From NCBI RefSeq assembly GCF_006345805.1, contig NW_021828518.1, positions 1 through 8,155 of the forward strand: a DNA stretch of 8,155 bases. The letters are read 5' to 3'. The notes below the pieces were generated by a model. The model did not search any database. It was not told the origin of the DNA and saw only the letters and a list, made by a program, of their open reading frames with translations. Source of the DNA: Octopus sinensis (taxonomy: Eukaryota). Shown here in pieces: positions 1 to 8,155 of this stretch (its first letter is position 1; each line of letters starts with the position of its first letter). Position numbers and translations under genes: made by a program.

Positions 1-255
1 ACAATTAAATATAAACTATAAAATATAAAATATAAAACAAAACAAAAAAATAATAATAATATAATAATAAACTATATATACACCCCTACACATATACCTA
101 ATTATATATAACCATATCTAACTACATACACTAAATCACACACCTATATATATCCCTATACATACACATATAAAACGTCTAGGCAACTATTAATAAATAA
201 AATAGCTAAATATTCAACACAATACTTATTCATACTCCCACACACACACACATAC
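1..255. repeat. Low-complexity A/T/C-rich tract (AAT, TA, CA runs; almost no G)
   Basis: Runs such as aaatataaaatataaaacaaaac, (aat)n and (ca)n, with only a handful of G. Confidence 0.7.
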
Positions 256-266
256 AACCACATTCA

Positions 267-1026
267 CGCTCTAGAAAACGGACATCACTCAAAACTATGA
301 ACAGAGAAATGGAATAAATGGAATTAAAAATTATATTCACTTGGTAAAACGAAACACTACTTAAAAATTATGAATGGAAACAATGCAATAAAACAACATA
401 CATCGCAAATAGACACAAATTACTACGAATTCCTTAACAAACCTATCATGATAAACAAAAACTCATAAAAACATATAATGATAAAATCTCCCTTTACTAA
501 ACTCTATAACAAACCTATTAGCAATCCCCCTAACCTAAACATTCACACACAAATACACACGTAAACAACACACACGACATATACAAATACCCACACCACT
601 TACACATACCAATACATACATATAAACCTCAACATATACTCCAAAAACCCACTCAACCCCACACAGACAAATAAACACAAAATTATGAATGGATTCTTTT
701 ATAAAACTACCATGATAAGCTAAAACTCACAAAAAACAGAAATGATAAAACCTCCCTTTACTAAACACTATAACATACTTATATAGCAATCCCTATAACC
801 TATACATTCACACACAAAACACACACGTAAACCACACACCCATAACAAATACAAACACCCACCCCACTCACACACACACCCACAAGTACAATAAGCCTCA
901 ACATATACACCAAACAAAATTACTTTACCAAGGAACTTAACATATGTATAAAAAGTATAACCGCTCTGGAAACGAACATCTCTAAATTAATGAATGGAGA
1001 AATGGAATAAATGGAATTAAAAATAA
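267..1026 (+). repeat. Older diverged and rearranged copies of the upstream repeat family
   Basis: 267-~680 aligns with 962-~1345 (cgctctagaaaacggacatc vs cgctctggaaacgaacatc, offset ~695). ~680-910 is a further partial copy. ~915-1065 resembles ~1718-1878. The core gagaaatggaataaatggaa and variants occur at 304, 997, 1801 and 2822. Confidence 0.85.
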
Positions 1027-2044
1027 TATTCACGTGGCAAAACGAACACCACTCAAAAATTATGAATGAAACAATGTAATAAAACAACCAACATCGAAAA
1101 TAGACAAATTACCACGAATTCCCTAAAAAAAACCATGATAAACCAAAACTCTTAAAACACATATAACGATAAAATCTCCCTTTGCTAAACTCTATAACAA
1201 ACCTATATAAAATCCCCCTAACCTAAACATTCACACACAAATACACACACGTAAACCACAGACCCACGACTTATACACATACCTATACTAACTATAAACC
1301 TCAATATACACCAAAACCCACTCACTCCCAACACAGACAAATTAACACATACATCCCAAAACCTAAATAACAAACCCATATACACATTCACACACAAACA
1401 CACCACACACAGCAAAACACACACACACAATGGATACATATACTCCCTCACATATACGCATATACATACTCACTAAACTCGATATATACAACAATATTTA
1501 CACACCCACACTCATACAGATAAATAAATTATACAACTAAAAACTCACACACAAACTCATATACATAAACACTCCTATGAAAACAACATTAAATACATCG
1601 TAATTAACCAGAATATCAAAAATAACAATATGACATAAGGATAAATAAAATACATACTTACAAGTCAGTTTCAAATTATGAAGTGAAATTAAATTCTTAG
1701 CCGTTAAAAAAATCAAACCAAAATTACGTTACCATAGAAATAACTTATGTAAAAAAAGAATACGCGCCATGGAAAGTAAACGTCATTTAAATTATGAATG
1801 GAGAAAAAGAATAAATGGAACTAAAAACTATATCCACGTGGCAAACCAACACTACTTAAAAAAATTTATTATGAATGGATTCTTAAAAAACTACCATGAA
1901 AAATCATTATATACATTTATGAGCTTTAGCTCACCTTAGCAGCTCTAACAAACAACTTGCAGTAACCCAAACCCATTCTCTATGCCTACCTCACTACTAC
2001 ACTATTCCATTCACAATTCCAAGCAACGCTAGTCCACCACCGGT
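1027..2044 (+). repeat. ~1.02 kb tandem duplication, copy 1
   Basis: Begins tattcacgtggcaaaacgaacaccactcaaaaattatgaatg and ends gctagtccaccaccggt; colinear with 2045-3069. Confidence 0.95.
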
Positions 2045-3069
2045 TATTCACGTGGCAAAACGAACACCACTCAAAAATTATGAATGAAACAATGTCATAA
2101 AACAACCAACATCGAAAATAGACAAATTACCACGAATTCCCTAAAAAAACCATGATAAACCAAAACTCATAAAAACATATAATGATAAAAACTCCCTTTG
2201 CTAAACTCTATAACAAACCTATATAGCAATCCCCCTAACCTAACATTCACACACAAATACACACACGTAAACCACAGACCACGACTTATACACATACCTA
2301 TACTAACTTATAAACCTCAATATACACCAAAACCCACTCCCTCCCCACACAGACAAATTAACACATACATCCCAAAACCTAAATAACAAACCCCTATACA
2401 ACATTCACACACAAACACACACACCACGCAAAACACACACACAAAACAGATACATATACTCCCTCACATATACGCATATACCTACTCACTAAACTCGATT
2501 ATACAACAATATTAACACACCCACACTCATACAGATAAATAAATTATACAACTAAAAACTCACACACAATCTCATATACATAAACATCATATGAAAACAA
2601 CATTAAATACATCGTAATTAACCAGAATATCAAAAATAACAATATGATATAAGGATAAATAAAATACTACTTACAAGTCAGTTTCAAATTATGAAGTGAA
2701 ATTAATTCTTAGCCGTTAAAAAAACCAAACCAAAATTACGTTACCATAGAAATAACTTATGAAAAAAAAAAAAAAAAGAGAATACGCGCCATAGAAAGTA
2801 AACGTCATTAAATTATGAATGGAGAAATAGAATAAATGGAACTAAAAACTATATCCACGTAGCAAACCAACACTACTTAAAAAAATTTATTATGAATGGA
2901 TTCTTTAAAAAACTACCATGAAAAATAATTATATACATTTATGAGCTTTAGCTCACCTTAGCAGCTCTAACAAACAACTTGCAGTAACCCCAAACCTATT
3001 CTCGATGCCTACCTCACTACCACACTAATCCATTCACAATTCCAAGCAACGCTAGTCCACCACCCGGTT
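2045..3069 (+). repeat. ~1.02 kb tandem duplication, copy 2
   Basis: Same start (offset 1018) and end (gctagtccaccacccggtt) as copy 1. Differences are scattered substitutions and homopolymer indels, e.g. the long A run at 2762-2777. Confidence 0.95.
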
Positions 3070-3178
3070 ACAATTCCCAACTCCACCCATTCATTCACAA
3101 TTTCAACGACATTCGCCTCCACAGCGCTACATATAAGCCTCAACATATACACCGGAGATACACTACACATCCGTGCGG

Positions 3179-3667
3179 ATGGGTGAGAGTATACATTGAG
3201 TGTAGTGATGGGGCTCCCATTACTATACACATTTGTACCTGTGTGGTAGTCTCCATGTGTATATTCACGCACGGTATAAATGAGGGGGTACACGCGCACG
3301 TCATTTGCGTGTACCCCCTCACATGTACATATGCATGCTATTGGGGCTCGATATATGCAACAATGTAATCGCGCCCGCATACATGCATATGGGCGAATTG
3401 CACAATCAAAAAACGCACATGTGTGTGTGTGCGTTCCTGGTTGTGCAATTCACCCATCTGGGTGTGAGTGGGTGTAAGCGTATCGCTGTGGATGTCGAGC
3501 TTGATACGTATGTATATGAGTGTGTATTAGGGGGTTGTACGTATTAATTGTGTGCATGTGCTTCACGCACTTGCGTCCATGTATGGATGAATATATTGGG
3601 ATTACTATGTGGGTGTAAATGGGATGGAGGGGGAGTTTGTCATTGTATGGGTGTGGGTTTCATTTGT
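3179..3667 (+). repeat. Long imperfect inverted repeat (~490 nt, centre ~3423), G-U-rich hairpin on + strand; candidate hairpin RNA or structured DNA element
   Basis: Pairings on one anti-diagonal (coordinate sum ~6846-6851): aacgcaca 3412-3419 / tgtgcgtt 3428-3435; gaattgcacaa 3395-3405 / ttgtgcaattc 3441-3451; gctcga ~3346 / tcgagc ~3495; ccccct 3314-3319 / aggggg ~3529-3534; 3230-3251 / 3600-3621 (14 Watson-Crick + 8 G-U); 3179-3188 / 3658-3667. Confidence 0.85.
3281..3321. other. Perfect 15-bp GC-rich stem-loop (11-nt loop)
   Basis: tgagggggtacacgc (3281-3295) is the exact reverse complement of gcgtgtaccccctca (3307-3321); loop gcacgtcattt. Confidence 0.9.
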
Positions 3668-3690
3668 GATGGTGGTTAGTTGGTGATTTT

Positions 3691-3824
3691 TAGTATATAT
3701 ATGTATTGTTATATTAGATATATATATATATATGTATATGTATGATATAATATAGTATATGTATATGTATATGTCTATATATATATGTATAGTATATATA
3801 TGTAATATATATATATGGTATATG

Positions 3825-3855
<31 letters not shown>

Positions 3856-3987
3856 GTATATGTATATATATATATAGTATATATATATGTATATGTGTTA
3901 TATATATATGTATATATATAATGTATATATATATGTATATGTGTATATATATATGTATATATATGTATATATGTATAATGTATATGT

Positions 3988-4022
<35 letters not shown>

Positions 4023-4128
4023 GTATATGTATATATATATGTATATATATGTATATATATGTATATATATATATAGTATATGTATATATATGTATATATA
4101 TAGTATATATGAGTATATATATATATGT

Positions 4129-4159
<31 letters not shown>

Positions 4160-4250
4160 GTATATATATTATATGTATATAATTATATATATATGTATAT
4201 ATATATATGTATATGTATATTATGTATGTATATATATATATATGTATATG

Positions 4251-4296
<46 letters not shown>

Positions 4297-4470
4297 ATTA
4301 TATGTATAAATATGTATATATATATATGTATATATATATATAGTATAATATATGTATATATATATGTATATATATATATGTAGATATATATATATGTATA
4401 TATATATGTATATATATATATATGTATATATATATGTATATATGTATATATATTATGTATATGTATTATA

Positions 4471-4507
<37 letters not shown>

Positions 4508-4517
4508 GTATATATAT

Positions 4518-4549
<32 letters not shown>
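3691..4549. repeat. Degenerate (TA)n/(TATG) microsatellite tract 1 (~860 bp)
   Basis: Continuous TA repeats interrupted almost only by G. Confidence 0.97.
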
Positions 4550-4551
<2 letters not shown>

Positions 4552-5027
4552 AAACATTATTGGTGAATTGAAGAAATGGAGCTGAACGCAGATTGAACAG
4601 AAATCGTTTTATTTCATTCTACACGTGTTTCGAAAGGCACAAATTACCAAAATCCGATTGAATAATGGGACCATATTGTGTCTTTCTCTTCAGGAAGAAA
4701 AAAGGAAATCCGTTGGAAAAACAAAAACAGAACAGAGGCGGAGCAAAAAACAAATCGAACTGTGCTCCTAAGAGCCCATGGCGAAACTCAGTTTCGCCAT
4801 GGGCTCTTAGGAGCACAGTTCGATTTGTTTTTTGCTCCGCCTCTGTTCTGTTTTTGTTTTTCCAACGGATTTCCTTTTTTCTTCCTGAAGAGAAAGACAC
4901 AATATGTCCCATTATTCAATCGGATTTTGGTAATTTGTGCCTTTCGAAACACGTGTAGAATGAAATTAAACGATTTCTGTTCAATCTGCGTTCAGCTCCA
5001 TTTCTTCAATTCACCAATAATGTTTTA
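4550..5027. repeat. Near-perfect 478-bp palindrome (arms 239/238 bp, 1-nt centre at 4789); possible foldback/MITE-like element
   Basis: Centre catggcgaaact-c-agtttcgccatg; ends taaaacattattggtg and caccaataatgtttta. By eye only one substitution (~4610) and one 1-nt indel (~4671) separate the arms. Confidence 0.95.
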
Positions 5028-5173
5028 ATTTCAATTATCCGCACCAACGCACGGTTGCAACGCCAGATGGTTGTACCTCCAACCGTGCTGTTTACTGCTG
5101 TGATTTTGCTACTAAGGTATCGGTTAAAACTTTTGATTAATCTACTACAAGATTATTCATCTTTCTATTTCAC

Positions 5174-5246
5174 ATAATATATATAATATGTATTATATAT
5201 ATATATATATTATATATCTATTATATGTATATGTATTATATATATG

Positions 5247-5280
<34 letters not shown>

Positions 5281-5319
5281 ATATATATATATTAGATATG
5301 TATATATATATATGTATAT

Positions 5320-5351
<32 letters not shown>

Positions 5352-5515
5352 GTATAGATATATTTATATGTATATATATATGTATATGTATTATCTAATA
5401 TAGTATGCATATATATAATGTATATATATGTATATATATATATATGTATATATATTATATATGTATATGTGTATATGTATGTATATTATATATATATATA
5501 TATATGTATTATATG

Positions 5516-5548
<33 letters not shown>

Positions 5549-5582
5549 GTATATATATATAGTATATGTATATGTATAGTGG

Positions 5583-5617
<35 letters not shown>

Positions 5618-5710
5618 GATATATATATATATATATGTTATATATATATATATATATCTATGTATATATATATTATGTATATGTATATATATATATGTAT
5701 ATATGTATAT
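5174..5710. repeat. Degenerate (TA)n/(TATG) microsatellite tract 2
   Basis: TA repeats with G interruptions. Confidence 0.97.
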
Positions 5711-5920
5711 GATCGCCATGTTGATTCGTTAGCTACTGCACGCATTTTTTTTCTCTCCTTCTTTCTGTGTTTTTCTCTCTCTGGTATCTTTCTGTTGAAG
5801 AGCGTAGGCTCGAAACGTTAAAGACTTGTTTTACTTATTTCCTGAGCGCCAATACTAATACAATTGTTCGTTTGTTTTCCACCTGCCTTCGTCTTTTGTT
5901 TATTTTCATAAAGCTTCCGT

Positions 5921-5939
5921 TATATATATGTATATGTAT

Positions 5940-5990
<51 letters not shown>

Positions 5991-6117
5991 GTAGTATATA
6001 TTTATATATATATGTATATATTATATATATATATATAATATATATATATATATATGTATAATTTATATATATGTATATATTATATATATATGTATATATA
6101 TATATATATATGTATAT

Positions 6118-6151
<34 letters not shown>

Positions 6152-6199
6152 TGTATGTATATATATAATATATGTATGTATATATATATATATATGTAT

Positions 6200-6241
<42 letters not shown>

Positions 6242-6384
6242 GTATGTATGTGTATATATATATATGTATGGTGTATATATATATATATGTATGTATATAT
6301 ATATATATATGTATGTAATATATATATAAATGTATTGTATATATATATATATTATATATGTATGTATATATATATATATGTACG

Positions 6385-6419
<35 letters not shown>

Positions 6420-6587
6420 GTATGTATGTATATATATTTATATATGTATGTATATATATATATCTATGTATGTATATAATATATATCTATGTATGTATAT
6501 ATATATATATGTATATATATGTATATATGTATATATATGTATATATGTCTATATATGTATATATGTATATGTATGATATATATATAT
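5921..6587. repeat. Degenerate (TA)n/(TATG) microsatellite tract 3
   Basis: TA repeats with G interruptions; TATG units become more frequent toward the 3' end. Confidence 0.97.
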
Positions 6588-6636: not shown

Positions 6637-6995
6637 AGTTTGCATAGATCGGCGAAAAACCCCTGTAGTTGCAAAACGTTAAAACTCTAAGTCATAGAGA
6701 TCACTACAAAACACTTTGGTTAAAAATATTTTAAAATATATATATAATATATATACATATACACAGTAATTTTCATTTTCGCCGAAACGCACATGGTGCC
6801 AAAAATAAAGAATCAAGTTATCTCCTGCAAGAAAGAAAAAAGAAGCATCTCTCCTGAAAAAAAATCCCGTAAACCAAAAAAATAATCCAGACCACATTGT
6901 TGGATTAAGTATCAATTTCATCTATTTCATATTTTGTTTATTATTCTATTTTATCCTCACGTAGGCCCACATATTAGTTAAAGTTGCGATCGCCA

Positions 6996-8155
6996 TTTTG
7001 TTGTTTACATTCAATATCTGTTCTCGATATAATCATTTTTCAGAACTCTATATTCTAATTAGCCCTAAGATTAAATTAAATAACGTTTAATATTACCCAC
7101 ACTCTAATATAATTTTGTTTGTTACATTTTCAATATCTGTCTCGATATAATAATTTTTCAGATACTCTATCTTCTAATTAGCCTTAAGATAAATTAAATA
7201 ACGTTTTATTGATGAACGTATAATAGCCTTAGGATTTTAAATTAAATAACGTTTAATATTGTTTTATATTGTTAATAATATTGTTAATTAGCCTTAAGAT
7301 AAATTAAATACGTTTAATATTGTTTAATATTGTTAATAGTTTTTCAGATACTCTATCTTCTATTAGCCTTAAGATTAATTAAATAACGTTTAATATTACC
7401 CACACTCTAAATAATTTTCAATATCTGTTCTTGATATAATAATTTTTCAGATATCTATCTTCTAATAGCCTTAAGATTAAATTAAATAACGTTTAATATT
7501 AATAACGTTAATTAGCCTTAGGATTAAATTAAATAACGTTTAATATTGTTTAATATTGTTAATATATGTTAATTAGCCTAAGATTAAATAATTAAATCGT
7601 TTAATATTGTTTAATATTGTTAATAATTTTTCAGATACTCTCTATTCTTATTAGCCTAAGATTAAATTAAATAACGTTTAATATACCCACACTCTAATAT
7701 AATATTAATATTGCTAATATATCATTTTTCAGATACTCTATCTTCTTAATTAGCCTTAAGATTAATTAAATAACGTTTATATAATAAACGTCTAATTAGC
7801 CTTAAGATTAAATTAAATAACGTTTAATATTGCCTTAATATTGTTAATATTTTTTCAATACTCTGTCTTCTAATTAGCCTTAAGATTAAATTAAATAACG
7901 GTTAATATTACCCACACTCTAATATAATATATATATGCTAATATTTTCAGATACTCTATCTCCAAATTAGCCTATTAGATTAAGATTAAATAATTTACCC
8001 ACACTCTAATATAATATTAATATTGCTAATATATTTTCAGATACTCTATCTCCAAATTAGCCTTAAGATTAAACAACGTTTTTACCACACTCTAATATAA
8101 TATTAATATTGCTAATACATTTTCAGATACTCTATCCCCTTACTTAGCCTTAAGA
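6996..8155 (+). repeat. Modular AT-rich satellite/minisatellite, 15 core copies, truncated by the window end
   Basis: Core ~aattagccttaagattaaattaaataacgtttaatatt, with tagcc at 7060, 7179, 7224, 7289, 7364, 7466, 7513, 7574, 7652, 7751, 7797, 7875, 7968, 8058 and 8145. Interleaved with reused modules tttttcagatactctatcttct, acccacactctaatataat and ttcaatatctgttctcgatataat. Confidence 0.95.

Follow-up and report, generated by a model that had tools for sequence, protein, structure and literature searches.

The window analysed here is an entire contig of about 8 kb (8,155 nt) from the 2.7-Gb genome of Octopus sinensis, and most of its left part belongs to a Penelope-like retrotransposon that seems to have been recoded by the RNA editing of its host. 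In this element a segment was inverted, the sense RNA would thereby have folded on its own repeats, an ADAR likely edited the duplex and the reverse transcriptase of the element likely fixed the A>G changes stepwise in the active lineage. Judging from the pattern of changes among the genomic copies, we regard this course of events as probable. RNA editing is normally not inherited, but the series of genomic copies appears to record editing that was written into DNA and accumulated there, on a scale of about one in five adenosines in the flipped segment and none in the ORF.

The element and its inverted segment

A search for copies with positions 3100-3690 returned 475 candidates; the 40 that were scored are dispersed and 95-98% identical. 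In eight long loci the homology spans 1-3706 of the window, extends about 340 nt to the left and continues to the right into an ORF on the minus strand. The whole element measures about 7.3 kb, of which about 4.7 kb are a repeat-rich 3' UTR whose sense strand is G/U-rich but for one A/C-rich arm. The locus L060 has an open frame of 859 aa that comprises a reverse transcriptase (RT), an insert rich in Asn and an end of GIY-YIG type; YRDD and VVY..YIG are present. A homologue (P0001) is 38% and 37% identical over the two parts of this ORF, and 48 homologues were found. A Pfam scan of two pieces of the ORF recovered no relevant family, and Rfam searches at E ≤ 1 over the window, L038 and L039 returned nothing but sub-threshold miRNA-like matches.

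The N-terminal RT motifs RWK and DKT of the Hydra clade are matched by RIKWK and SDKT, and CTCRDKSNC corresponds to a CxCx5C linker. A CCHH motif is lacking, with a single Cys between VVY and YIG. The C-terminal CxxC and CxH are found in L025 as CYLC and CRH, while L060 has CRN in place of the latter. Assignment to the Nematis clade was rejected, as both its CX2-5CxxC linker and its CCHH motif are absent. The layouts of C1b, C1a and C2a contain pseudo-LTRs (pLTRs), partial tandems and inverted 5'-truncated copies. Insertion in (TA)n is seen at 3694-4548 of the window and in the flanks of C1b; the TA threshold was passed by just 11 of the 61 scored 3'-end flanks, a set that includes internal pLTR ends. 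Candidate hammerhead boxes (CUGAAGA and GAAAC) have complementary flanking arms, although the minimum free energy fold differs and Rfam makes no call; the 3' end with this putative hammerhead-type motif lies beyond the left end of the contig and is seen in other copies. Positions 1-3706 form the 3' UTR of a Penelope-like retrotransposon that is present in high copy number and, placed by these motifs rather than by phylogeny, resembles the Hydra clade. In the description of this clade of C-terminal EN+ Penelope-like elements by Craig et al. 2021 (PMC8557442), the same RWK, DKT, CxCx5C, CxxC and CxH motifs, tandem and inverted 5'-truncated copies and (TA)n target are given, together with a hammerhead-type 3' motif to which the candidate boxes may correspond, but the elements are generally shorter than 3 kb, against about 7.3 kb here. 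The Asn-rich insert is also unlike the Hydra clade, and a Penelope element of Adineta vaga is described as having one too (PMC3846280). In L025 (4069-5865) and L060 (6985-9564) this insert places more than 100 aa between the RT thumb and the endonuclease with the frame kept, and in these two copies fragments of the UTR are fused in frame to the beginning of the ORF. The parts of the region are as follows.

1-3706, minus strand: 3' UTR (pseudo-LTR) of the Penelope-like retrotransposon, 5'-truncated at 3706; copies are dispersed and collinear with the RT and GIY-YIG ORF in long loci.
2925-3706, minus strand: flipped segment of about 990 nt, the last ~200 nt lost here by the truncation; inverted relative to L075, L080 and L081.
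2925-3140, minus strand: most heavily recoded part, antisense to the downstream repeats since the flip; 52 T>C and 0 C>T in 209 columns against L075.
3143-3419, plus strand: left arm, which goes back to an older inversion of the repeat unit and was presumably G/U-recoded while the plus strand was sense; 31 columns with a G found in this arm only.
3421-3706, minus strand: right arm, A/C-rich on the present sense strand and complementary to the upstream copies by alignment and duplex energies.
408-2572, minus strand: six G/U-rich copies of the repeat unit (markers at 540, 805, 1228, 1385, 2244 and 2402), the putative duplex partners, in which A>G accumulated once the segment had flipped.
1027-3070, no strand: recent tandem duplication of about 1019 nt (1027-2046 and 2045-3070, 94.7% identical), which some copies lack.
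3694-4548, no strand: (TA)n array at the junction left by the 5' truncation, described as the usual Hydra target (PMC8557442).

An earlier note, made from the letters of the window, had described the upstream block as copies of a hairpin arm in which G is replaced by A and often T by C. All its strings were recovered where it had placed them, including the six exact occurrences of its marker and the variant at 3262. In transition-tolerant alignments against 200 dinucleotide shuffles, the reverse-complemented right arm (3421-3706) matches the left arm with z = 17.6 and the six upstream copies with z = 7.1-17.5, three other upstream stretches reaching only z = 0.4-2.0; under neutral scoring, just three of the six copies exceed z = 4. 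The count of six stands for the markers but not for independent units, because of the tandem duplication, which is missing from the genomic copies L004, L005, L012 and L017. The direction from G to A is real, as the left arm has G where the upstream copies have A at 262 positions and the reverse at 8 (102 and 12 for the reverse-complemented right arm). The change from T to C holds for the left arm (T against upstream C at 114 positions, the reverse at 62) and fails for the right arm (95 against 123).

The segment is found in the opposite orientation in L075, which is one of 40 ORF-anchored loci and whose ORF is 98.7% identical. A search with the orientation of L075 yielded two more unflipped copies (L080 and L081) and a graded series of flipped ones; the unflipped copies are thus three among the 31 loci screened, and the deep nodes among them are short branches. 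The junction sequence of L075 is also present in the outgroup L064, and a tree of the flanking region, for which 20 of the 31 rows (ingroup and outgroup) were kept for sufficient coverage, gives the order outgroup, unflipped, early, mid and late copies, the flipped ones grouping together with 100% support. Because the junction is common to L075 and the outgroup, and given the order of the flank tree, the orientation carried by the window family is the derived one. Compared with L075 over 779 columns, the window shows 75 T>C and 34 G>A, the reverse changes numbering 2 and 1, and the outgroup paralogues have T at 74 of 84 T>C sites and G at 19 of 25 G>A sites. In L072, L073 and L078 the flipped segment was deleted outright, a second route to the loss of the duplex.

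Changes since the inversion

The changes were counted on the sense strand between the majority of the three unflipped copies and the majority of 13 late copies. The flipped lineage underwent A>G at 88 of 411 sites and T>C at 0 of 177 (p = 2e-15); the other changes are C>T (43/293) against G>A (2/108, p = 1e-4), 17 A>T and 8 C>A. Within the first 200 nt of the flipped segment, 51 of the 105 sense adenosines were altered. The suggestion of the earlier note that the copies may record strongly directional, strand-asymmetric transitions finds support here, whereas its RIP option conflicts with C>T and G>A counts that put the changes on one strand only. The substitutions are one-way when polarised, as it had supposed, but the G>A that it saw on the plus strand is C>T on the sense strand, that is, the product of a bias distinct from the A>G process and not of ADAR. 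The reading that the unflipped lineage had gained A>G at these G/A positions was rejected: graded copies and outgroup paralogues make them later C>T in the flipped lineage.

The two kinds of change differ in timing. The four earliest flipped copies already carry 40-57 A>G, yet only 5-6 C>T and 6-8 transversions; mid copies have 68-84 A>G, in partly different subsets, with 6-15 C>T, and late copies about 88 A>G with 42-49 C>T. One copy (L085) has 17 private A>G, 15 of which fall inside 192 nt. The ORF, with 17 fixed differences in 1675 columns, has no A>G. Singletons of the late copies have no excess of A>G (17/1150 against 26/2007 T>C); therefore the pattern does not come from decay of the DNA after insertion. 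We read the symmetry of these singletons as probable saturation, which also amounts to no ongoing signal.

The sequence context and the distribution of the A>G changes both point to an enzyme acting on double-stranded RNA. In the flipped segment, adenosines changed in 30 of 86 cases after U, 40 of 141 after A, 16 of 153 after C and 2 of 29 after G (U/A against C/G, p = 2e-7); the depletion of 5' G taken by itself gives p = 0.058, and the 35 late-only sites have no clear context. The partner repeats, which were not inverted, gained 37 A>G against 2 G>A and 3 T>C, on the same strand and at the same time, with 27/186 inside the partner intervals and 10/461 outside (p = 1e-8), and changed after U in 21/103, A in 5/35, C in 0/21 and G in 1/27. 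Their unflipped controls show no gain of A>G (3:4 and 2:5). A 5'-neighbour preference of the same order is described for ADARs (PMC8586724, PMC5625713). Over 19 windows, A>G follows the presence of a close antisense partner (rho = 0.68, p = 0.0015), with the exception of 851-900, where a good partner goes with 0/21 edits, while C>T shows no correlation; the correlation of A>G with duplex energy has p = 0.08. Preferential editing of A-C mismatches is not clear (22/121 against 10/104). Clustered A>G on one strand, in both duplex partners and after U or A rather than C or G, constitutes the signature of ADAR hyper-editing, and it is this signature that designates an ADAR as the probable enzyme. 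The host encodes adenosine-deaminase (A_deamin) domains at several loci, and contigs of four sequencing runs guessed to be RNA, which are unstranded, cover the stretch.

The proposed course of events would then be the following. An inversion of about 1 kb in a long 3' UTR would let the sense RNA of the element pair back onto its own repeats, and the host ADAR would likely edit A to I in both partners of this duplex. The reverse transcriptase, taking the sense RNA as template, would likely read I as G and so fix A>G in each new genomic copy. New masters would descend from edited RNA, so that the active lineage would accumulate A>G step by step. An older inversion would have made the left arm, recoded in the same way, and a slower C>T bias of the sense strand would supply the G>A seen on the plus strand.

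On the same strand, 43 C>T, 17 A>T and 8 C>A are not products of an ADAR and imply a second strand-biased process, which might also add some A>G. Its C>T bias is also found among copy-private changes (67 against 11), avoids CpC (2/81) and favours CpG only mildly (9/31); it could come from an error bias of the reverse transcriptase or from a cytidine deaminase. The most serious rival extends this process to all the changes: a general strand bias, through deamination of single-stranded sense DNA or RNA or through RT error, would relax any inverted piece towards G/U without an ADAR. The C>T asymmetry, among fixed and private changes alike, agrees with this idea, as does the C-poor sense strand of the entire element. 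Nevertheless, the A>G changes precede the others and arrive in bursts, are restricted to intervals that have a partner, affect both partners including the non-inverted repeats, spare the A-rich ORF and have a 5' U/A bias. It is thus unlikely that a general bias explains the whole, and it likely accounts for the C>T part only.

Loss of perfect complementarity, and the hairpin

The flip creates 41 perfect runs of at least 12 nt, of which early and mid copies keep 8-11 and the window 5, the unflipped level being 4; runs of at least 20 nt go from 11, as computed right after the flip, to 1-3 in early and mid copies and 0 in late ones. This return to the pre-flip level would also be expected if selection acted on RNA structure, ordinary mutation supplying G-U wobble variants that evade silencing or the sensing of dsRNA and from which the next subfamily arises, and the most recoded type is indeed the commonest among the copies fetched. 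Yet any mismatch breaks a duplex, while the changes are nearly all A>G, and the private clusters of A>G in single copies could not be built from single selected mutations. As a replacement for editing this selection is quite improbable; it may act on top of it.

In the unflipped copies the hairpin of the left and right arms has 183 Watson-Crick, 121 G-U and 3 A-C pairs on their own sense strand, and the G-U pairs have dropped from 121 to 81 since the flip. In the window, 67 G-U pairs fall on the plus strand and 17 on the other, and the RNA folds better on the plus strand (-239 against -173 kcal/mol) because the flip moved the hairpin to the antisense strand. The plus-strand hairpin is a relic of the time when that strand was sense. 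As DNA, the hairpin has nearly the same energy on either strand, which lends no support to a role in cDNA structure. Given its 31 arm-specific G, the left arm is most readily taken for an earlier inversion that was recoded likewise. Older relatives (L046 and L057) carry a (TA)n-like tract with G but almost no C on the sense strand, 70-73% like the repeat unit, which suggests that the repeats originated from a self-complementary microsatellite that had been edited. When 17 older or sister UTRs were aligned with themselves, there was a hint of G-U prevailing over A-C, partly from composition, and two of the 17 failed to beat the null. Four members of older subfamilies (L040, L042, L046 and L057) have an imperfect fold-back of about 900 nt of their own, whose pairs on the sense strand include about 100 G-U but 6-11 A-C.

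The earlier note had suggested for this hairpin a plus-strand RNA switch, in which a G/U-rich arm would choose between the left arm and the six copies, in the manner of Dscam docking and selector sequences, or would give small RNAs against the array. Pairing between the arm and the upstream copies is possible as it proposed, but the ORF lies on the minus strand, where the roles are reversed, one A/C-rich arm facing many G/U-rich repeats, and the duplexes are more stable on that strand in six of six cases, by a margin over shuffles that is clear in only two. The comparison with Dscam fails in a transposon 3' UTR with a variable number of repeats and no exons to select. The stability of the plus-strand hairpin (z = -8.7), and the inverted 5' copies in C1b and C1a that would put the plus strand in read-through RNA, speak for such a switch; the wobble of the hairpin, however, was inherited from the unflipped state and has since decayed, and in one insertion the differences between the 5' inverted copy and the 3' UTR show no bias towards editing, which leaves the switch very little credit. 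Gene conversion among the repeats, repair of the palindrome, RIP and errors of assembly can practically be discarded: a few changes do perfect the hairpin centre in the L075 alignment, but paralogues have T rather than C at 77 of the 84 T>C sites, adenosines in A-C positions show no clear preference, and the changes are one-stranded and occur in many copies on different chromosomes.

If heritable editing by ADAR is retained, a wider reading may be considered, towards which we lean slightly. ADAR would count as a major source of heritable mutation in this lineage, and each inversion in its RNA, like each self-complementary (TA)n tract that the RNA captures, would be rewritten to G-U in the germline; this would build the G/U-rich UTR, erase perfect dsRNA and possibly aid the amplification of the recoded type, and Penelope-like elements would copy a sense rather than an antisense RNA template.

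Known systems and neighbouring sequences

ADAR A>G hypermutation has been described in the avian retroviruses RAV-1 and ALV (Felder 1994; Hajjar and Linial 1995, as cited in the review PMC8586724) and in sigma virus (PMC5630973). As described there, an A-to-I edited RNA genome is likewise fixed by copying, with a 5' U/A preference, but those are viral isolates, whereas here the changes belong to an endogenous retrotransposon lineage, with germline insertions and dated intermediates. In LTR retrotransposons, DNA editing by APOBEC, given as restricted to vertebrates and reported absent in 19 invertebrates (Knisbacher and Levanon, PMC4866542), similarly leaves a strand-biased host deaminase signature in genomic copies; it produces G>A on the sense strand and acts on cDNA, whereas the changes seen here are A>G on the sense strand and go with pairing partners in the RNA. 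Hyper-editing of inverted repeats at the RNA level, including a lizard Penelope (Porath et al., PMC5625713), shares the inverted repeats, the clustered A>G and the upstream depletion of G, but is described as edits in RNA against the genome, and not as changes inherited in DNA. In the titles and abstract openings of the open literature, no account was found of a retrotransposon lineage in which inherited A>G edits accumulate. A known class of elements and a known enzyme thus seem to be joined in an apparently undescribed heritable process that is well documented here.

For the present family, the sense-strand signature argues against the antisense template that was proposed for Penelope elements by Arkhipova et al. 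2013 (PMC3846280), and the edited strand offers a test of the open question of sense or antisense templates. Such copies would also be a genomic fossil of germline ADAR activity and of its sequence preference, and they open the way to a simple screen of whole genomes for A>G, on the model of the APOBEC DNA-editing screens. For annotation, they warn that a selected RNA structure need not lie behind a G-U-rich hairpin or a strong skew in such elements.

The rest of the window holds other repeats. In the TA arrays of 3694-6587, G lies almost exclusively on the plus strand, with a GC skew of up to +1.0, and among 11 TA-rich flanks 3' of element ends, G exceeds C on the element sense strand in nine and C exceeds G in one; edited read-through tails or the orientation of the target could explain this skew. 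A near-perfect palindrome of 478 nt (4550-5027; arms 99-100%) has hammerhead-like boxes and resembles a head-to-head pair of 3' ends from a further Penelope-like family. Hammerhead-like boxes (GAAGAG..CGAAAC) also occur at 5790-5830, in a unique island of about 200 nt inside the TA array that is probably another Penelope-like 3' end. The right end of the window (6995-8155) is an AT-rich, satellite-like array of shuffled subunits with periods of 86-287.
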